Shown here piece after piece: positions 14,152 to 21,999 of a stretch of 64,000 nucleotides of DNA (position 1 is its first letter; each line of letters starts with the position of its first letter). This DNA comes from Candidatus Latescibacterota bacterium (GTDB lineage Bacteria; Latescibacterota; UBA2968; UBA8231). The position numbers were made by a program, and so were the translations under genes. The notes beneath the pieces were generated by a model. It was not told where the DNA came from, did no database searches, and saw only the letters and a list, made by a program, of their open reading frames with translations. The stretch is from contig OZ244561.1 in the NCBI GenBank assembly GCA_965217585.1, forward strand, positions 3,552,001 to 3,616,000. The letters are read 5' to 3'.

Positions 14152-16419
14152 TTATTCGATCTCTGAGGTATATATCGGCTCGGGAATGCCTTCAAGCGAA
14201 CAGAAATTGCTCACTTGGTCAGCTAAGACCTTACCAGCAGGCGCATTGCCGTTGGGATAAATCCTAAAGCTATGTATATCCGCTTGGCTTGCGTCTACTT
14301 CATATCCTAGATCGGCTAATGCTTGAATAGTTATTGCGGTTAAGGCGGCACTGCCTCCAGAGGCGTTGGTGGACATTAGTTCATTGTACATGACTGCACC
14401 GCGCCAATGATGAGGTGTAGGTCCTTGTTCGACGGGAACCTTTTTGCCTCTATAGCTTTGTCCCCCCAAATCATTAAAGGCTTGAATCGCTCTTGAGCCG
14501 ATAAAGTGCGTATCGGATACGTAATCGGTTTCTGAGCCAGGATTTTTTAGTAATCCTAGCTCATCCCATATCGTTCCGATTCCAAGAACATGGCCTATTT
14601 CATGTACGAGCACTAATTCATGCAACCATCCACTTTTGGCTATTTCTACGCATCCAATAGCGGGCAGTTGACTGTCTCGTACTAAATGTGGATAGCCTTT
14701 CCCAAGAGGGCCGTCCTCTTCATGTTCAAAGACCGTTACATAAATACGCAGGTCGTCAATTTTATCACCGGCTGCAATATGGATGGGTTGGTTCCCACAC
14801 GCCGATTGGAAATCATGCTTGAGTGTGTAGTCAGGTATATCCTGTTGAATGATTTGTTCCCAACGCGTTCTTACAGGATCCCAATAGAAAGGAATACCAC
14901 CTGGAAGATCATCGAAAAATTCATTCGCTTCGCCAAGAAAGACGAACTCAATATTAAAGGTCCCCGCAGGAAAATCCCAGTGAACAACTGTTCCACGAGC
15001 CTGTAAGGCGGGTATTGTCTTTTTAATAGAATTCTCTGAGAGGGACGAGCCTCGCAAGTCCACGTATTCTAACATCAGATTTTCTAAGGGAGTAATGTCT
15101 TCTAAGCTTTCAGCAGTTACCTCGGGAAAGGAAAAGTCAAGTGTCTTAAGGTTGGTCAGGTGTTGCATAACGGAAATATCCGTTAGTTTGGGAACTCTTA
15201 TAACTAGGACGCTAAGACTCGTCAAGCCTTGCAATCCTGAAATAGCGGTAAGCAAAGGCCCATCTATATGTAATTGGTTGAGATGCTTTAAGTTGTTCAA
15301 AGATGGCAAACTAGCCGCATGGGTTCTCAACGATAGCCACTCTAGGTTAGTTAATTGAGAAAGAGCATCCGCATTTTGAATTGGGTGGCCACGTACACTC
15401 AGAGATTTAAGTTTCGTCAACGACGCAAGAGGTGCGATCCCGGTTAGTTTACCTATAATCTCCTCTTCAAATGAACCATCTGCATAATGATGTAAAAGTT
15501 CACCGCCACTAATGTATAACTCTGTTAGATTCGTGGCCGCTTCCATCCCTGTTAGAGAGACGATCTCTTTATTTTCGATAGTCAACCGTTCCAAAGAAGC
15601 CATATCGCCCCAAGTAATCGTTGCCCCCGATTGTTTGTTGAGGGCTTCTTCGAGAATTGTTCTAAGCGCCTGATCGGGGACTGAAACAGGGCTGTTTTGA
15701 TCGACTACTACAGAGAATGTATTCTGATTATCAGCCTCCGTCTGGGTCGTAAATTGATGTCCCTCTATCCACTCGGATGCCCCCTGACTGTTTTCGGCTC
15801 GCACGGCCCAGCGATACGTCGTGTTCGGCTCCAATTCACTGATGGTATTATATAGTCCCGTCCCTCTATGCGGTTCGAGTTGCCAACGACCGTTGGGCAC
15901 CTTCTTGTAGTTTAGATCGTAGTCGGTCGCTCCTTCAGAGGCGTCCCACCGAACCGTACACTCCGAACTGGTTGGCGTGTCGAATCGCAGATTGGTTGGC
16001 GGGGCCGGATTTGCCAAAGTAGCTACCGAGGTGTCATCCTCCGTCTGGGTCGTAAATTGAGGTCCTTCTACCCACGCGGATGCTCCCTGACTATTTTCGG
16101 CTCGCACAGCCCAACGATACGTCGTATTCGGCTCCAATTCATTGATGGTATTGTATAGTCTCGTCCCTTTATGCGGTTCGAGTTGCCAACGACCGTTGGG
16201 CACCTTCTTGTAGTTTAGATCGTAGTCAGTCGCTCCTTCAGAGACATCCCAGCGCACGCGACAGGAGGTACTAGTGGGATCGTCGAATCGCAGGTTGGTA
16301 GGCGGAGCCGGGTTTGCCAAAGCAGCTACTGTTTTGCCAGCTGGTGAAAGCGGCGCGGGTTTATCCTTCGAGCAGGAAAGGGCTAAAAACGATAGGGCGA
16401 GCAAGATAATGCGTAGCAT
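14152..16419 (-). CDS. Lipoprotein with two FN3 domains, leucine-rich repeats and a leishmanolysin (M8)-like zinc metallopeptidase domain
   Basis: Lipobox LALSC after RBS AGGAG; two FN3 units (LEPNTTYRWAVRAEN); LTNLxxL repeats; HEIGHVLGIG, HHW, NELMS, ALADLGY; visibly lower GC than flanks. Confidence 0.8.
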   Translation of the reverse strand: MLRIILLALSFLALSCSKDKPAPLSPAGKTVAALANPAPPTNLRFDDPTSTSCRVRWDVSEGATDYDLNYKKVPNGRWQLEPHKGTRLYNTINELEPNTTYRWAVRAENSQGASAWVEGPQFTTQTEDDTSVATLANPAPPTNLRFDTPTSSECTVRWDASEGATDYDLNYKKVPNGRWQLEPHRGTGLYNTISELEPNTTYRWAVRAENSQGASEWIEGHQFTTQTEADNQNTFSVVVDQNSPVSVPDQALRTILEEALNKQSGATITWGDMASLERLTIENKEIVSLTGMEAATNLTELYISGGELLHHYADGSFEEEIIGKLTGIAPLASLTKLKSLSVRGHPIQNADALSQLTNLEWLSLRTHAASLPSLNNLKHLNQLHIDGPLLTAISGLQGLTSLSVLVIRVPKLTDISVMQHLTNLKTLDFSFPEVTAESLEDITPLENLMLEYVDLRGSSLSENSIKKTIPALQARGTVVHWDFPAGTFNIEFVFLGEANEFFDDLPGGIPFYWDPVRTRWEQIIQQDIPDYTLKHDFQSACGNQPIHIAAGDKIDDLRIYVTVFEHEEDGPLGKGYPHLVRDSQLPAIGCVEIAKSGWLHELVLVHEIGHVLGIGTIWDELGLLKNPGSETDYVSDTHFIGSRAIQAFNDLGGQSYRGKKVPVEQGPTPHHWRGAVMYNELMSTNASGGSAALTAITIQALADLGYEVDASQADIHSFRIYPNGNAPAGKVLADQVSNFCSLEGIPEPIYTSEIE
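15735..16322. repeat. Intragenic tandem duplication with 303-bp period encoding two FN3 domains
   Basis: cctccgtctgggtcgtaaattga begins at both 15735 and 16038; near-identical translations. Confidence 0.9.
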
Positions 16420-16607
16420 GGGTAGCTCCTTCGTCAATTTTCGGAAAGTGGGTCTTGAATGTAATTGCTCAAGATCAGAATTACAATCGTTTTCAAGGCC
16501 TGAGTTTAACCTTAACTATTGGTATTGAATATCGGCGTAAGCTATCCGGCGTTTTCAATTGGCTGGTGGAGCTTGACTGAGCGTATCGTTTGCCGTTACG
16601 TTGACAC

Positions 16608-16889
16608 ATGATCAAGAGCTTTGCGGACAAGCGCACTGCGGCGATCTTTTCAGGTCATGCCGTTCGCGGCATGCCCATGCAACTCCAGCGACGAGCGCGG
16701 GTGAAGCTACTGGCGATTGACGCGGCTGGTCGGCTTGGCGATCTGCACACGCCGCCCGGCAATCGCCTTGAAACTTTGCGGGCAGATCGTCGCGGTCAAT
16801 ACAGTATTCGCGTCAATGACCGATGGCGTATCTGCTTCGTTTGGCGCGATGGGGAAGCGTGGGAGGTCGAGATTGTTGACTACCATTGA
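16608..16889 (+). CDS. higB: HigB-type (RelE/ParE family) toxin
   Basis: MIKSFADK, PPGNRLE, GQYSIRVNDRWRICF, VEIVDYH. Confidence 0.9.
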   Translation: MIKSFADKRTAAIFSGHAVRGMPMQLQRRARVKLLAIDAAGRLGDLHTPPGNRLETLRADRRGQYSIRVNDRWRICFVWRDGEAWEVEIVDYH

Positions 16890-16897
16890 GGAGGCAA

Positions 16898-17278
16898 ATG
16901 AATATGACTATCAAGCGGGAAGAACTGGACAGGCGGGAGGTCGATTTCTCGGATGTGGCTTCTGGACGACGGCTGCCGCCGGTGCATCCCGGCGAGATTC
17001 TGCGCGACGAATTCCTGACGCCCATGGAGATCAGCGTGTACCGACTTGCCCAAGCGATCAAGGTTTCGCGTCCGCGACTGAACGATATTGTGCGCGGACG
17101 CCGCGGTATCACGACCGATACTGCGCTGCGCCTTGGGCGCTACTTCGGCATGACGCCTGAGTTCTGGATCAATCTTCAGACGCGCTACGATCTCGATGTC
17201 GCCGAGCGCACGACGCGTCGCCAGATCGAGCGAGAGGTAGAGCCGCATGCTGCTCTGGACGAGACGGCCCTAGATTGA
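16898..17278 (+). CDS. higA: HigA antitoxin (XRE HTH)
   Basis: [23 protein letters not shown]; follows higB. Confidence 0.9.
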
Positions 17279-17311
17279 TGGGCGATATTCATGCCCGGCC
17301 AATCCCACCTG

Positions 17312-17394
17312 CCGCTTGGCCGCCCACACGGTGTTGTAGAGCAACAGCGCGATCGTCATCGGCCTGACTCCATTGGGCATGGGCGTGATCGCGC
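17312..17394 (-). repeat. Displaced copy of the folD 3' end (direct repeat of 21133-21215)
   Basis: 83 bp with 5 transition mismatches; translates [27 protein letters not shown]. Confidence 0.9.
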
Positions 17395-17471
17395 TCTAAT
17401 TTCCCGAGATCAACAGTAGTCTGCCCCAACCGCAAGTTCCGCGCCTAACTTTGGCGGTTTAGGGTGAGATT

Positions 17472-17837
17472 TCAAACTGAGTCACTATCCTCTAAAGGTT
17501 GTTGGCTCGTCGTCAGTGAATCGGCGAGGGTGGTTACGATGGATTTCTCATCCCGTTTCGACAGCTTCCCGACTTTGCGTACCACCGATTTATTATCGAG
17601 CGTGAAGAGCTTGAGGCGGATTTTGTAAGGCACATTGAGACCGGCTTCCTGCCAATCCTCAATGACTACATCGCTTGGCCATTTGTTTTTCGTGCTCGTA
17701 ATCATGGCGAAGATCGTTTGCTTGTGAACCTTATTGAAGCTCACTGAAGAGACGACTAGCGCTGGGCGGCGTTTCTTTTCATTGAGGTCTGCGAAGGGGA
17801 AGGGAACGACGACGACATCGAACGGATCAAAGGTCAC
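17472..17837 (-). CDS. PemK/MazF family toxin
   Basis: GTG start after GAGGAGG; FDVVVVPFPFAD, KRRPALVVS, MITS, AGL. Confidence 0.9.
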   Translation of the reverse strand: MTFDPFDVVVVPFPFADLNEKKRRPALVVSSVSFNKVHKQTIFAMITSTKNKWPSDVVIEDWQEAGLNVPYKIRLKLFTLDNKSVVRKVGKLSKRDEKSIVTTLADSLTTSQQPLEDSDSV

Positions 17838-20800
17838 GCCAAGCCTCCTCATCTTCTGGAGAAGTCCATTCTTCGCTCATCGTCTGATAAAGACCACGCA
17901 GGTAATCGTCCTGAACTAGTGGCCAGCCGCCGTAGGCGTCTATTGTTTTGTCAATGCTGGCCATGATGCGCGGCGTCTCGGCCAAGGCCGCGCAGAGACG
18001 GCGGTAGTGGGCAATGTCGTCGTATGAGAGGGTGCGGTTTTTGCGGTCCTTGAGCCACTTCTCTGCCGACTGGTAGCCACCAATGGTGAATTCCCATGTA
18101 TCTGGTGCAACGCCGTCAAAATACTGCTCGCTGTTGATCCACACCCGCTTCTGTGACGGCGCATAACGCACCTTTTCTACGCGATTGTCGCCAGCGACCG
18201 GAAAGGCGGGGGTCTCGCCGTCATTGGCTTCCATTAAGTGCAAGGCCGTAAGCCGCTTCCCAAACGCGGCGAGCGACTCAAACAGCGCACCGCAGTTGGT
18301 CACGGGAACGCGGGGAAAATCTGACTTGAGGAAGTCAGCGTAGCGGCGGCGGTATTCTGGGCTGTGGAGCACTGCGTAGAGGTAGTGGAGTACATCTTCC
18401 GGGCCGAAGGTAGTTTTGAGGTCGCCGGTGCCTTCGGGGATGAAGTCGAGAGTGGTGGCGGAGGAGAAGGCTTTGACGAAATCGGAGTTCAGGTTGGGGA
18501 CGCGCCTCTCACCGACACGCGCAGATTTTTTTGTTGAATAGATATAGAGCGGGAAGAGACAGTTCCCACCACGTCGAAACAAATTTAAATCCGAGGAAAA
18601 TTTTGAAGCAAAAACGATCTCCCAAGTGTCGGAACCAATAACTTGACCAGCACGGCCGACGCACAACCCCAAGTTCGGGCCTGCCAACATGTGGCGCATG
18701 ACGCGCTCGCGTCTGTGGACAGCGACGTTGCGGTCGAATACTGTGGCCCGGACATCGAACGGTCGGTAGAGGACTGGTTTGATTTGCCCGCGCCAAGAGC
18801 CGCCCGCTAGTTCCTGTTTCGCCCGGTCGTACTGCCATTGATTCTGTGAACACAGACGCCATTGGGCACGTGCCTCATCTTCCGATGAGGTGGCGAGTAA
18901 ACGCTCGACTTTGGTCGCCGCTTCTTCAGGTGTCCATGAGATGGCGAATTGATCGTGCGTAGTTACGATGCCCGGTGCTGGATCGCCATTCGGCGAAAAA
19001 ATCGAGGGGATAGACCACGCCGCCTCGTACTCTTCGATCAATTCTTCGTCGCGCGGAATAAACAGATACAGCGGTGGCTTAGGTGAAAGCTCCGTCCAAT
19101 CAGTAGTTTCAGCGCTGTTGGCGGCGAGCCAGCCATATTTCCCGCCATCTGGACCCGCCTCGCGCTCGCCCCACAAGTCGGCGTGAAACACCTTGGCTGG
19201 GCCGTTGTCGGCATCTTTGCATTTGACGAACAGACCAATGGCGACCCCCTGCTGAATGTCGAACACATTTTCGTCGTTACCGCCATCAGGGGTTTGCTCC
19301 TTCTTCTTGGCGTTGCCGTGCAGATCGAGCAAATAGATCTCGTCAAAGGTTTCCATCAAGCTGCGGCGCATCCCACGAAAGGTCGGGTTGTCCAAGTAGC
19401 TGTGGTTGGTCACGAAGCCGAGCACACCCTCGCCGGTGCGCTCAATGCGCCATTGGGTAAAGCGAATGAATTTCACGTAATCGTCGCTGAGCCACTTAGC
19501 TTGCGCCGGTCTTTCTAATTCGGGGAAACCCTGCTTGTAGCTACCGATCAACTCCGCAATCCACGCGCTCTTGTTGGCGGAGTGTCCGGAATAGGGCGGG
19601 TTGCCCATCACGACCATTACCGGCTTTTCTTGCTTGGCCTCATAAGCACTGGTCGCTTCACGCACAATTTCGGGAGCAAAGAGCGGGAAGCTATGCCCTT
19701 CGTCCGGCCCTTCTAAGGCATTGGTGAGGAAGACATTAAGCCGCTCGCCGGTGGGCATGGCAAAGCCGCGGTCCGTACCGCCAATTTCGAGCGCGAGTTT
19801 TAGATGACAGATCGAATAAGGGGCCATCAGCAGTTCAAACCCGAACAGGCGCGGCAAAAGGTGCTTCTGCACGTAGCCGGGCCAAGCACCGCCTAACCCC
19901 TTCGCCTCAATGGTCTCGCGGATGGTGGCGACTACTTCGCGCAGGAAGGTTCCCGTCCCCGCCGCCGGATCGAGAATCATCACCCGCGGACGGGGAGATC
20001 CGCCGTTTTCGGACGCGACCGTTGCCGTGTCGGCTAGCCCATCGGCTAAGCCAAACCGATCACGCAATAAGTGATCCACGCTCCGCACGATGTAAGACAC
20101 CACGGGTTCGGGCGTATAGTACACGCCGCGCATCTCACGCAGGTGCGGATCATAAGCCGCCAAGAAATCCTCGTAGAAATGCACCACTGGGTCTTCTTGC
20201 CGGGTCTTCTTGCCGAACTCGGACAGGATAGACGCCATGTCCGCCCGGTCTAGCAAGTACGCCAGATCATCGACAATCCAAGCGATCCGCTCGTCCATTC
20301 CCGGGCCGGCAATCCGCCCGAAGACATCTCGCAAAAAGGGCGTGGTCTCGGCAAACGCGGCTGACTGGCGGGTAAAAGGTCCATTGGCGGGTTCGTGCCG
20401 GCACCGTGCCGCAAACAGCCCATAAGCGGCCGTCTGCGCCTGCAGATCGGCGAAGTCTGCTTCCGACAAGCCGGCGATGAGTACCTCTCGGTAGCCGGTG
20501 AGCATGCTGTGGAGGGGGCCGGCCTGAGCTTCTTGAGCAAAGATGCGCTCAATGCTGTCACGGAGTAGCCGCGCCTTGGCCGCCATGCGCTCGGCCAGTT
20601 CACGCGGCCGGCCGATGGACTGCGGGTCGGCGTCAAAGAACGCGGTGAACAATTCGGCGACTTGGCGGGTACCAGCTTGGTCAATAGCGATCCGATCTCG
20701 GCTGTCGATGTGTGCAAGCCGCGCCTTCAGGCGCAAGTCCCCTTCTACATACCAGCGAAACTCTAAATAATCGGTCAGAATCAGATTCGGCAGGCTCTCG

Positions 20801-21093
20801 CGGTAGCGCTTCAGTTGCGTGTCTTTCTCGACAAGATCTAAGGGTACGCCGACATCCTTGCATTCGACATGGCCGATGGGTACCCCTCCCCGCTCGACGA
20901 TAAAATCGGGCGCACCGCAAGCGATGCGCTTAGGCTCATTGAGGGCACGGACTTGTTGGCCACCCAACCCCTGAATCAGATTCTCAAGGGCCGAGCGGTA
21001 GCTATGCTCGGTCGCCTGCTTGGTAGCAAAGGTAGTCTTCAGGCTATTGCAATACGCCTGGAGAGGACTGCTAAGGGCCTGTTTTGTCGTCAT
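17827..21093 (-). CDS. Single-chain restriction-modification enzyme (nuclease + N6-adenine MTase + Type ISP-like specificity domain, no helicase) with antitoxin-like C-terminal tail
   Basis: GAPDF..VECKD nuclease motif; GVYYTP; DPAAGTGTF; GNPPY; YRPFD; DFPRVP; IGGYQ..KWLKDR; tail YLRGLYQTMSEEWTSPEDEEAWRDL. Confidence 0.85.
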   Translation of the reverse strand: MTTKQALSSPLQAYCNSLKTTFATKQATEHSYRSALENLIQGLGGQQVRALNEPKRIACGAPDFIVERGGVPIGHVECKDVGVPLDLVEKDTQLKRYRESLPNLILTDYLEFRWYVEGDLRLKARLAHIDSRDRIAIDQAGTRQVAELFTAFFDADPQSIGRPRELAERMAAKARLLRDSIERIFAQEAQAGPLHSMLTGYREVLIAGLSEADFADLQAQTAAYGLFAARCRHEPANGPFTRQSAAFAETTPFLRDVFGRIAGPGMDERIAWIVDDLAYLLDRADMASILSEFGKKTRQEDPVVHFYEDFLAAYDPHLREMRGVYYTPEPVVSYIVRSVDHLLRDRFGLADGLADTATVASENGGSPRPRVMILDPAAGTGTFLREVVATIRETIEAKGLGGAWPGYVQKHLLPRLFGFELLMAPYSICHLKLALEIGGTDRGFAMPTGERLNVFLTNALEGPDEGHSFPLFAPEIVREATSAYEAKQEKPVMVVMGNPPYSGHSANKSAWIAELIGSYKQGFPELERPAQAKWLSDDYVKFIRFTQWRIERTGEGVLGFVTNHSYLDNPTFRGMRRSLMETFDEIYLLDLHGNAKKKEQTPDGGNDENVFDIQQGVAIGLFVKCKDADNGPAKVFHADLWGEREAGPDGGKYGWLAANSAETTDWTELSPKPPLYLFIPRDEELIEEYEAAWSIPSIFSPNGDPAPGIVTTHDQFAISWTPEEAATKVERLLATSSEDEARAQWRLCSQNQWQYDRAKQELAGGSWRGQIKPVLYRPFDVRATVFDRNVAVHRRERVMRHMLAGPNLGLCVGRAGQVIGSDTWEIVFASKFSSDLNLFRRGGNCLFPLYIYSTKKSARVGERRVPNLNSDFVKAFSSATTLDFIPEGTGDLKTTFGPEDVLHYLYAVLHSPEYRRRYADFLKSDFPRVPVTNCGALFESLAAFGKRLTALHLMEANDGETPAFPVAGDNRVEKVRYAPSQKRVWINSEQYFDGVAPDTWEFTIGGYQSAEKWLKDRKNRTLSYDDIAHYRRLCAALAETPRIMASIDKTIDAYGGWPLVQDDYLRGLYQTMSEEWTSPEDEEAWRDL

Positions 21094-21114: not shown

Positions 21115-21999
21115 CTACGATAGCCCGCACTTCCGCTTGGCCGCCCACACGGTATTGTAGAGCAACAGCGCGATCGTCATTGGCCCGACTCCGTTGGGCA
21201 CGGGCGTGATCGCGCGGACCTTGGGGCGCACCTGTTTGTAATCCACGTCGCCGACGAGTCGCCAGCCGCGTTCGCGCGAGGGGTCGTCCACTTGGTTGAT
21301 GCCCACGTCGATTACTACAGCCCCTTCTTTGACCATATCCGTCGTGATCCCGCGAGGAAATCCAGCCGCCACCACTAGGATGTCCGCTTGGCGCGTGAAG
21401 TGCCCGAGGTCGCGGGTGCCGGTGTGGCACAAGGTCACTGTGGCATTGGCCCCGGCCGCCTTGTGCCCCAGCAAGATGGCTACGGGCCGCCCCACGAGCG
21501 TGCTCCGGCCGACCACGACCACGTGCTGGCCGTCCACCTCGATTCCACTGCGGCTGAGGATCTGCAAGACCCCGTGCGGCGTACAGGGCCAAAAGCACTC
21601 CTCCTGTCGCACGAGGCGGCCCAAATTGACCGGGTGCAAGCCATCGACATCCTTGTTTGGGTCAATGGCGTTGAGGACTTGTTGCTCGTCTTGGCTCGGC
21701 AGTGGTAGCTGTATCAAGATGCCGTGGATCGCGTCGGCGGCGTTGAGCTGCTCGACAGTGGCTAGTACGTCCTCGGTCGCAATAGTGGCCGGCAGATCTA
21801 CTTGCTCGGAGTGAATTCCGAGGGCTTCGCAGGCTCGGCCCTTGGCTCGTACATAGGACTGCGAGGCTGGGTCGTCCCCCACCAGCACGACCGCCAAGCC
21901 CGGCACCAGACCGTGCTCCTGTTTCAGGTGCGCGATGTCCGTCCGCAGCTCTTCTTGCACTTGGGCCGCAATCGCCCGGCCATCGAGTCGCTCGCCCAT
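21115..21999 (-). CDS. folD: Methylenetetrahydrofolate dehydrogenase/cyclohydrolase
   Basis: LDGRAIA, KDVDGLHP, PCTP, GRSTLVGRP, IDVGIN, TPVPNGVGPMT; TAATG coupling to serS. Confidence 0.95.
   Translation of the reverse strand: MGERLDGRAIAAQVQEELRTDIAHLKQEHGLVPGLAVVLVGDDPASQSYVRAKGRACEALGIHSEQVDLPATIATEDVLATVEQLNAADAIHGILIQLPLPSQDEQQVLNAIDPNKDVDGLHPVNLGRLVRQEECFWPCTPHGVLQILSRSGIEVDGQHVVVVGRSTLVGRPVAILLGHKAAGANATVTLCHTGTRDLGHFTRQADILVVAAGFPRGITTDMVKEGAVVIDVGINQVDDPSRERGWRLVGDVDYKQVRPKVRAITPVPNGVGPMTIALLLYNTVWAAKRKCGLS

Follow-up and report, generated by a model that had tools for sequence, protein, structure and literature searches.

The last 29 residues of a restriction-modification (R-M) enzyme encoded by Candidatus Latescibacterota bacterium very probably constitute the antitoxin of the PemK/MazF-family toxin whose gene directly follows. 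Both genes lie on the minus strand of a 64,000-nt stretch of contig OZ244561.1 (assembly GCA_965217585.1, positions 3,552,001 to 3,616,000), hereafter the window, whose own numbering is used throughout. The homology of this C-terminal tail to canonical antitoxins, the selection acting on it, the way in which parts of the locus have been lost in related genomes and a predicted complex of tail and toxin all point in this direction, and it is from these that we infer neutralization. A preliminary description of the same DNA had proposed that the R-M protein itself holds the toxin inactive, which also appears to be the most likely arrangement from the sequence comparisons and models reported here. 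The features concerned are the following.

17827..21093 (-): R-M enzyme with antitoxin tail, a single open reading frame (ORF) of 1088 aa (from the ORF list)
21093-20224 (-): nuclease-bearing N-terminal part of the enzyme, residues 1-290 (rough domain bounds)
20223-19024 (-): N6-adenine methylase, residues 291-690 (rough domain bounds)
19023-17917 (-): target-recognition domain, residues 691-1059 (rough domain bounds)
17830..17916 (-): antitoxin-derived tail, residues 1060-1088, VQDDYLRGLYQTMSEEWTSPEDEEAWRDL (from an antitoxin hidden Markov model (HMM), tblastn, the ratio of nonsynonymous to synonymous differences (pN/pS), the predicted local distance difference test (pLDDT) and co-folding)
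17844..17850 (-): ribosome-binding site (RBS) of the toxin, GAGGAGG, within the tail codons for E-E-A and 6 nt 5' of the GTG at 17837
17472..17837 (-): PemK/MazF-family toxin, 121 aa from the GTG (PF02452, E 6e-15)

Organization of the locus

The enzyme ORF ends at a stop codon at 17827-17829, so that its 1088-aa product terminates in ..IDAYGGWPLVQDDYLRGLYQTMSEEWTSPEDEEAWRDL*, and it shares 11 nt with the toxin ORF. The toxin RBS inside the tail and the overlap of the two ORFs had both been described correctly, but the stop codon of the enzyme does not, as had been stated, overlap the GTG start codon. The toxin ORF can also be read from an ATG (17472-17852, minus strand; the 126-aa form), and the starts of its homologues coincide with the GTG at 17837 (MTFEPFD..). 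The PemK/MazF domain occupies residues 11-112 of the toxin, and Pfam finds no other domain in the 121 aa. The toxin has 2907 homologues. Among 23 homologues, 33 alignment columns are invariant and the toxin retains all 33 of them, including R29 and T52 (126-aa numbering), which may correspond to Arg29 and Thr52, the catalytic residues of E. coli MazF. A comparison of the toxin with the sequences of the PDB gave no match at E <= 0.01.

The enzyme and the normal end of its family

The enzyme is a DrdV/MmeI-like single-chain Type IIG/IIL R-M enzyme, predicted to cleave and methylate DNA. Pfam recognizes Type_ISP_C at residues 707-1044 (E 6.9e-81) and N6_Mtase (E 3.1e-08), while the REase_MTase_IIG model of PADLOC matches up to residue 1053 (E 1.5e-275). 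The closest solved sequence found with phmmer is 7lo5 (E 2.9e-41), followed by LlaBIII and LlaGI, and the AlphaFold2 model, for which 22 homologues were used and whose mean pLDDT is 71.6, has DrdV, PDB 7lo5, as its top Foldseek match over the whole length (about 1140 alignment columns, E 1.9e-42), with further fold matches to LlaBIII/LlaGI, BREX PglX, BpuSI and MmeI. In the alignment, the PD..ExK nuclease motif (D63, E77, K79) is kept in at least 90% of the 22 homologues, and the methylase motifs N498-P499-P500-Y501 and D375-P376-A377 are invariant in all of them. Across six full-length copies, the pN/pS of the enzyme is 0.20-0.27, and it is this purifying selection alone that would speak for an active enzyme.

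Members of this family normally end at, or just after, a GGWPL motif, beyond which 28-29 extra residues are found here. That the R-M ORF runs past the family end into a 29-aa tail, as first described, thus agrees with the end points of the Pfam and PADLOC matches as well as with the relatives of the enzyme. A 75%-identical enzyme from another family of the same class (G079) ends in GGWPLSQ*, and the likeness of its DNA to the window stops at 17921, at the junction. More distant homologues behave in the same way, as one of 49% identity ends at query residue 1059, those of 41-44% end at about residues 1043-1055, and 59 of 76 complete metagenome homologues end no more than 10 aa from the GGWP motif.

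Other additions are found at the same place in relatives of the enzyme. One carries a LexA-like Peptidase_S24 domain after its GGWP motif (L241:5202-5744; Pfam E 7.7e-10), a 1325-aa ORF of another genome (L098, in G108) terminates in sequence much like this add-on, and four further loci (L192, L226, L231 and L236) have extensions of about 218 aa after the motif that match no Pfam family. The C-terminus of the Type IIG family therefore looks like a recurrent fusion point, and a restriction enzyme with a self-cleaving S24 domain may merit separate study.

Homology of the tail to canonical antitoxins

Homologues of the toxin were collected from 80 public genome loci, 77 of them canonical (45-63% toxin identity) and three fused as in the window. 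At 76 of the 77 canonical loci, an ORF of about 74 aa that ends in ..DDYLQGLSEVLSEWISPEDEEAWRDL lies directly 5' of the toxin gene and overlaps its start, with a geometry that is common to fused and canonical loci. The Pfam MazE_antitoxin (AbrB/SpoVT) domain covers residues 4-47 of these 74-aa antitoxins. An HMM of 74 positions built from the 76 antitoxins aligns, through its positions 48-74, to residues 1061-1088 of the enzyme with 29.7 bits (E 3e-11 for one sequence). Taken alone, the tail reaches 38.0 bits, where 1000 shuffles gave 11.3 bits at most, and by tblastn it is 61-81% identical to the antitoxin ends of 34 of the 77 canonical loci. These matches bear out the earlier recognition of the tail as being of the MazE/AbrB type. 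The MazE_antitoxin domain is absent from the last 44 residues, as from the entire enzyme, so the part that has been kept is exactly the antitoxin region outside the DNA-binding domain. In E. coli MazE, according to the excerpt of the source used here, residues 1-50 suffice for DNA binding and the disordered C-terminus has MazF neutralization as its sole role (PMC4333400). In the model of the enzyme, the tail hangs directly off the target-recognition domain.

Carriers of the tail other than this enzyme were looked for in two protein collections. A word-based search for longer proteins in a collection of 5.8 billion returned the enzyme family in 33 out of 33 matches, and an exhaustive search of 1.84 billion representatives gave five matches, of which three are members of the enzyme family. 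The other two are a fragment of 31 aa and a repetitive protein of 1240 aa that is only 23% identical and was taken as spurious. This absence from other kinds of protein is a weak indication, as matches to the tail alone score too low in such large libraries. In a metagenome scan, the last 100 residues recovered 80 enzyme homologues at 50-67% identity, none of them tailed, and the toxin gave no match.

No separate antitoxin gene was found in the ORF list of the small islet that the two genes form (see below), in line with the preliminary description. The result extends to the genome as a whole as far as a cognate antitoxin is concerned, since only one homologue of full length came out when the six-frame ORFs of 25 aa or more were all searched with the HMM. 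This 73-aa AbrB-type antitoxin, ending in ..LAEWQDEEDDDL, belongs to a canonical pair elsewhere in the genome of the window (L002, G000:C1:4562871-4563411). Its tail (..AEWQDEEDDDL) differs from that of the enzyme and its partner toxin is a paralogue only 41% identical to the toxin studied here; it was judged non-cognate on both counts, and cross-protection may nonetheless occur. Read-depth peaks at 17808-17841 (17786-17856, runs X1 and X5) consist of short contigs with differing loose ends, which probably stem from canonical pairs in other organisms, namely from their conserved antitoxin-end/toxin-start region.

Distribution, natural variants and selection

The locus was followed through 168 genomes of the phylum, including 76 of the family and 31 of the Latescibacterota genus to which the genome of the window (G000) belongs. 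Matches that reach into the tail occur in 10 of the 168 genomes, all 10 among those of the genus. Every copy shares the junction GGWPL-VQ(D/E)DYL, which is identical in assemblies of other species and is also present in three Latescibacterota genome assemblies (L006-L008). Counted at the protein level at 90% identity, the 5.8-billion-protein collection contains 33 clusters with the fusion, and the length of about 20 of these is 1078-1096 aa. Another study yielded a contig (X5) that spans 17409-17990 with seven substitutions and no gap, a second contig (X1) has no difference from the window and may be its own source, and a stop codon after GGWPL was found in none of the runs that cover the junction, so that the latter, whose confirmation in reads had been called for, holds. 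An assembly artefact or a one-off fusion is ruled out by the recurrence of the same junction in assemblies of other species and in the contig of another study.

Close homologues of the toxin (at least 83% identity) are found in 8 of the 76 family genomes. The same fusion with a toxin downstream can thus be found in other genomes, as all eight carry a tail ORF upstream of the toxin and none of the eight has a close toxin without a translatable tail. Five genomes (G000, G144, G137, G133 and G145) have the full enzyme, the tail and the toxin. In two others (G134 and G140), an in-frame deletion of 2010 nt has removed 670 codons of the enzyme (from about codon 10 to about 680) and kept its ATG, which leaves a 418-aa product composed of the recognition domain and the tail, with an intact toxin behind it; this product corresponds to a protein cluster with 10 member sequences (P0124). 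In G146, an interruption follows residue ~723 of the enzyme, of which a C-terminal fragment, with the tail and an intact toxin, lies 175 kb away. Most of the enzyme is accordingly deleted or split off in three of the eight toxin-bearing genomes (G134, G140 and G146). Two further genomes have lost the toxin. G118 keeps the enzyme and the tail, which ends in AWLDL, and its toxin is deleted after codon 11; in G141, the toxin is deleted after FDPFDVV, a TAG stands right after GGWPLV and the dead tail has four more amino acid changes. The sole tail truncated by a stop codon thus sits where the toxin is deleted.

The pN/pS of the tail is 0.14 (pN 0.026, pS 0.189, over 25 overlap-free codons) and that of the toxin 0.27, both summed over 28 non-independent pairs of the eight toxin-bearing genomes. 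Tail, toxin and enzyme are thus all under purifying selection.

The copies of the enzyme also differ in a part of the target-recognition domain. Residues 701-800 of the G145 enzyme are only 23% identical to those of the window, the segment 18702-19027 (enzyme residues ~690-800) gives no DNA alignment with the copies of G145 and G141, and another version of it is found in G146 and in P0122. These differences look like an exchange of specificity segments.

Predicted structure of the tail-toxin complex

In the model of the enzyme alone, the pLDDT of the tail is 42-46, versus 70-89 for residues 1000-1059, as would be expected of a tail that folds only upon binding. Folding of the tail together with the toxin, a check put forward in the preliminary description, placed the tail on the invariant Arg/Thr site of the toxin. 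Two toxin chains and the last 44 residues of the enzyme reached a score of 0.77, against 0.01 for the best of three controls; this mark is reached by 58 of 80 solved complexes and by 2 of 110 mismatched pairs. The runs share at least 58% of their contacts, with a pLDDT of the partner of at least 65. The tightest predicted contacts join E1075, W1076, D1081 and W1085 of the tail to R29, M50, T52, R79 and K81 of the toxin (numbered in the 126-aa form). All five toxin residues are invariant in the toxin family, and E1075, W1076 and D1081, but not W1085, are invariant among the tails.

Proposed origin and mode of action

A single fusing deletion is the likely origin of the locus, because every copy shares the junction GGWPL-VQ(D/E)DYL; and because the overlap with the toxin gene does not differ between fused and canonical loci, the simplest origin is likewise one deletion that begins at the enzyme stop codon and reaches into an antitoxin gene. 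This old event would have taken the stop codon of the enzyme, the spacer and the first ~46 codons of an adjacent mazE-like antitoxin gene, i.e., the AbrB DNA-binding and dimerization domain of the antitoxin. The remainder, a disordered toxin-binding tail, would have been left in frame on the C-terminus of the enzyme, with the original overlap and RBS unaltered. An in-frame deletion fusing two neighbors had been considered from the start as an alternative, in the form of a one-off event; the deletion itself is likely, but its product is not unique, as it is found in 10 of the 31 genus genomes and in 33 protein clusters. The arrangement that should have preceded it, an enzyme gene followed by a complete antitoxin-toxin pair, was not found among the 77 canonical loci. 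At one of these only (L034), an unrelated R-M-like gene lies 4.3 kb from the canonical pair, and the contig with the closest tail-less enzyme (G079) ends 200 nt past the gene.

The 1088-aa enzyme would now be the only cognate antitoxin, its flexible tail covering the face of the PemK/MazF dimer at which RNA is bound and catalysis takes place, and thereby holding the toxin inactive. Since the AbrB domain is gone, operator control should be gone with it, so that synthesis of the toxin would be tied to the end of the enzyme gene, its translation being coupled to that of the last enzyme codons. Expression would then depend on the enzyme's own signals, probably by read-through from folD, the gene upstream. 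On the minus strand, the folD stop codon (TAG, 21115-21117) is followed 21 nt later by the enzyme ATG (21093), itself preceded by AAGGGGA, and a scan for promoters and terminators gave counts no higher than those of shuffled sequence. Two RNA libraries yielded contigs that, at 90-96% identity, span the start of the toxin gene, the tail and the enzyme gene's 3' end, among them a single contig of 1310 nt (run X18) that matches 17731-18400; they are a weak hint of transcription, as DNA may be present in such libraries. Below 17731, the X18 contig continues with 253 nt unlike the window; in the relative from which it comes, most of the toxin gene seems to be gone.

A frameshift or nonsense mutation anywhere in the 3.2-kb enzyme gene would, on this model, end synthesis of the tail and free the toxin, so that only in-frame lesions, or lesions that follow loss of the toxin, would be tolerated. 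The toxin would in this way lock in a translatable C-terminus, acting as an addiction ratchet that also stabilizes the islet. Release of the toxin by a translation stop ahead of the tail would explain both the enzyme lesions that keep the tail beside an intact toxin and the decay of the tail after toxin loss. As the catalytic parts are lost while tail and toxin are kept in 3 of 8 genomes, the toxin-tail pair can do without an active enzyme.

This ratchet can be taken one step further, to a two-layer defense unit in which the fusion is a 'reading-frame lock' and the toxin stops those cells whose enzyme gene or protein fails, a view that we consider less likely than not. It fits the loss pattern, because the enzyme lesions beside an intact toxin all keep the tail translated and the sole nonsense mutation is found where the toxin is gone. 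If it is correct, a frameshift, a nonsense mutation or lost expression of the 3.2-kb gene would lead the toxin to kill or arrest the cell, and an infected cell whose enzyme is degraded, or whose C-terminal domain is seized by a phage inhibitor, would meet the same fate. A toxin-antitoxin (TA) pair would then police the integrity of a defense gene at the level of translation, backed by abortive infection.

Several points weigh against the enzyme tail being the antitoxin. Type II systems rely on labile antitoxins, with which a tail borne by a presumably stable protein of 120 kDa is at odds, and release of the toxin is hard to explain. Binding, toxicity and neutralization are deduced from sequence and model, and the co-fold result, obtained with alignments made within this analysis, may reflect likeness to solved MazE-MazF complexes, although by sequence the toxin matches no PDB entry at E <= 0.01. 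The genomes are non-independent, all copies deriving from one fusion in one genus, the pN/pS of the tail rests on the few sites of its 25 overlap-free codons, and conservation of the tail could partly reflect the RBS and start of the toxin gene rather than the peptide. In addition, G146 also has a canonical pair with a very similar antitoxin tail, and it is possible that this canonical antitoxin cross-protects. The toxin of the window has a Tyr where at least 90% of homologues have a Cys. In G145, judged by eye, two Arg that are invariant in the toxin family are replaced by Cys, and the tail ends in AWCAL; this toxin may be decaying, in which case the intact toxins may number seven, not eight.

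Alternative explanations

The same observations can be read as a covalent guard, in which the enzyme not only neutralizes the toxin but also senses attack, an anti-restriction protein, proteolysis or a conformational change then freeing the toxin for abortive infection. Guardians of R-M systems, PrrC and PARIS among them, are an accepted class, according to the part of the source relied upon (PMC12707154), and the phage inhibitor Ocr targets related methylase folds, if the titles of PDB entries are followed. The enzyme moreover seems to be in use, as indicated by its pN/pS in the six full-length genomes and by the swapped recognition segment of G145; about 20 of the 33 protein clusters are of full length and the tail is attached straight to the target-recognition domain. 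However, nuclease and methylase parts have been deleted or split off in three of the eight toxin-bearing genomes while tail and toxin stayed, and two genomes keep the enzyme without the toxin, so the two functions are separable; the sequence, furthermore, yields no trigger, release mechanism or phage partner. This repeated loss of enzyme parts weakens the idea of a PrrC-like guard, which we consider unlikely. The loss pattern fits the addiction ratchet at least as well and favors it.

It is less probable still that the fusion is incidental and that the working antitoxin is a small protein whose synthesis depends on an internal start or promoter close to where the enzyme gene ends. Metagenome gene calls of 114, 121, 124, 278, 315, 410 and 418 aa share the C-terminus of the enzyme, some of them on contigs of 172-407 kb, so that C-terminal fragments can stand alone, and a study of Rpn proteins, known here from its title in a reference list, reportedly describes intragenic antitoxins. 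The short forms seen in genomes nevertheless stem from gene deletions or rearrangements and not from an internal start in an intact gene, the in-frame deletion of G134 and G140 keeps the enzyme ATG, which would be needless if an internal start made the tail, and the promoter scan was no richer than shuffled sequence. Finally, the fusion might be an inert relic that persists by chance, with a tail that no longer binds or a toxin that is dead or silent. Frequent decay of the locus and the one near-invariant position at which the window toxin differs would agree with this, yet it is highly improbable in view of the purifying selection on tail and toxin, the complete set of invariant columns in the window toxin, a tail that is intact in 8 of 8 toxin-bearing genomes and broken by a stop codon only where the toxin is deleted, and the fact that the only large enzyme deletion beside a toxin is in frame; the RNA-library contigs over the tail and toxin start speak weakly in the same sense, with the caveat given above. 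The enzyme tail as the antitoxin remains the reading that we retain.

Genomic context

Together, the enzyme and toxin genes make up an islet of 3.8 kb, with an 86-nt direct repeat of the folD 3' end on either side:

21130..21215 (strand not assigned): direct-repeat copy A, in the 3' end of the intact folD gene (from repeat search and genome comparison)
17309..17394 (strand not assigned): direct-repeat copy B, a displaced folD 3' end that delimits the islet on its far side (86 nt, with 93% identity to copy A)

Genomes of the genus that are free of the islet cease to resemble the window precisely at 21130, the edge of the repeat. At 28 other loci of the genus, the enzyme follows folD in seven and a HigB/HigA pair comes directly after folD in four. 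Small islets have a hot spot at the folD 3' end, and a further folD-end copy closes each of them. The window has two such copies, G141 (L093) three and G140 (L097) a short third one. There is no integrase inside the 3.8-kb islet, and the module of G145 is 1.5 Mb from its folD. Repeats, folD-end copies and the position in G145 together indicate that the islet occupies a hot spot of recombination and that the whole unit has moved on at least one occasion. In another genome (L132, G131), only the first 34 enzyme codons are left after folD, at 60% identity, which would be another stage in the decay of the islet.

Just outside the islet, a HigB-like toxin (16608-16889, plus strand, 93 aa) and a helix-turn-helix (HTH) antidote (16886-17278, plus strand, 130 aa) overlap by 4 nt. 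This pair directly follows folD in G142, G129, G124 and G123, which lack the enzyme islet there; it has no PADLOC match and is named from a reading of its sequence only. Further on, a 761-aa lipoprotein-like ORF (14152-16437, minus strand) contains two tandem 303-nt repeat units that are 88% identical (15731-16329), then leucine-rich-repeat-like and HExxH metalloprotease-like sequence, as read from its translation.

Comparison with known systems

In the literature covered, with subscription journals and supplements outside its scope, no antitoxin or antitoxin tail fused to an R-M enzyme is described. To our knowledge, neutralizing tails have so far been met only on small DNA-binding domains, antitoxins being known as modular. 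The present locus would thus provide a natural and conserved case of a neutralizing tail on a large defense enzyme, and what may be a direct physical link between an R-M system and a growth-arresting RNase, testable in a few cloning steps. It would also be a case of a toxin holding an adjacent coding sequence hostage, the tail still being translated after two thirds of the enzyme have been lost. Should the frame-lock or guard idea prove true, it would represent a new way of protecting costly defense genes from decay and of coupling first-line to last-line immunity; should it prove false, the locus would still be a clean example of a TA pair outliving the loss of its regulator domain.

Among R-M enzymes, the carrier resembles DrdV and MmeI in its whole-length fold, its PD..ExK and NPPY motifs, its Type_ISP_C domain and its PADLOC assignment (REase_MTase_IIG), and differs from them by the 29-residue appendix of foreign origin past the family end. 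The Type ISP enzymes LlaGI and LlaBIII share the methylase and target-recognition part, but the enzyme here is without their helicase-like motor. As in PrrC-EcoprrI, a latent RNase is encoded with an R-M protein that presumably silences it, to go by the portion of the source drawn on (PMC12707154). PrrC, however, is an anticodon nuclease with an ATPase domain that cuts tRNA-Lys, is encoded inside a Type I hsd operon and is masked by a Type IC enzyme without any covalent link, features that are absent here, where the RNase is a 121-aa protein of the MazF type and the inhibitory peptide would be part of a Type IIG enzyme. The likeness to PrrC/EcoprrI is one of idea only. CapRel, with its fused antitoxin domain as presented in the section of the source used (PMC12255303), and Rpn, with an intragenic one, likewise have no free-standing classical antitoxin gene, but in these the antitoxin portion is contained in the polypeptide or gene of the toxin itself, whereas here it sits on an unrelated defense enzyme.

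The type II TA systems MazE-MazF and PemI-PemK (Kis-Kid) are also close relatives. They share with this locus a PemK/MazF toxin, an antitoxin element located upstream that overlaps the toxin start, and an acidic, Trp-containing C-terminal tail that is disordered when alone, as the consulted passage reports for MazE (PMC4333400). There, the tail is borne by a domain of ~46 residues, and here by a 1059-residue enzyme with no AbrB/MazE domain, and thus with no antitoxin dimer or operator autoregulation. The locus therefore most likely works as a MazEF/PemIK pair would after exchanging its DNA-binding antitoxin domain for an unrelated carrier.

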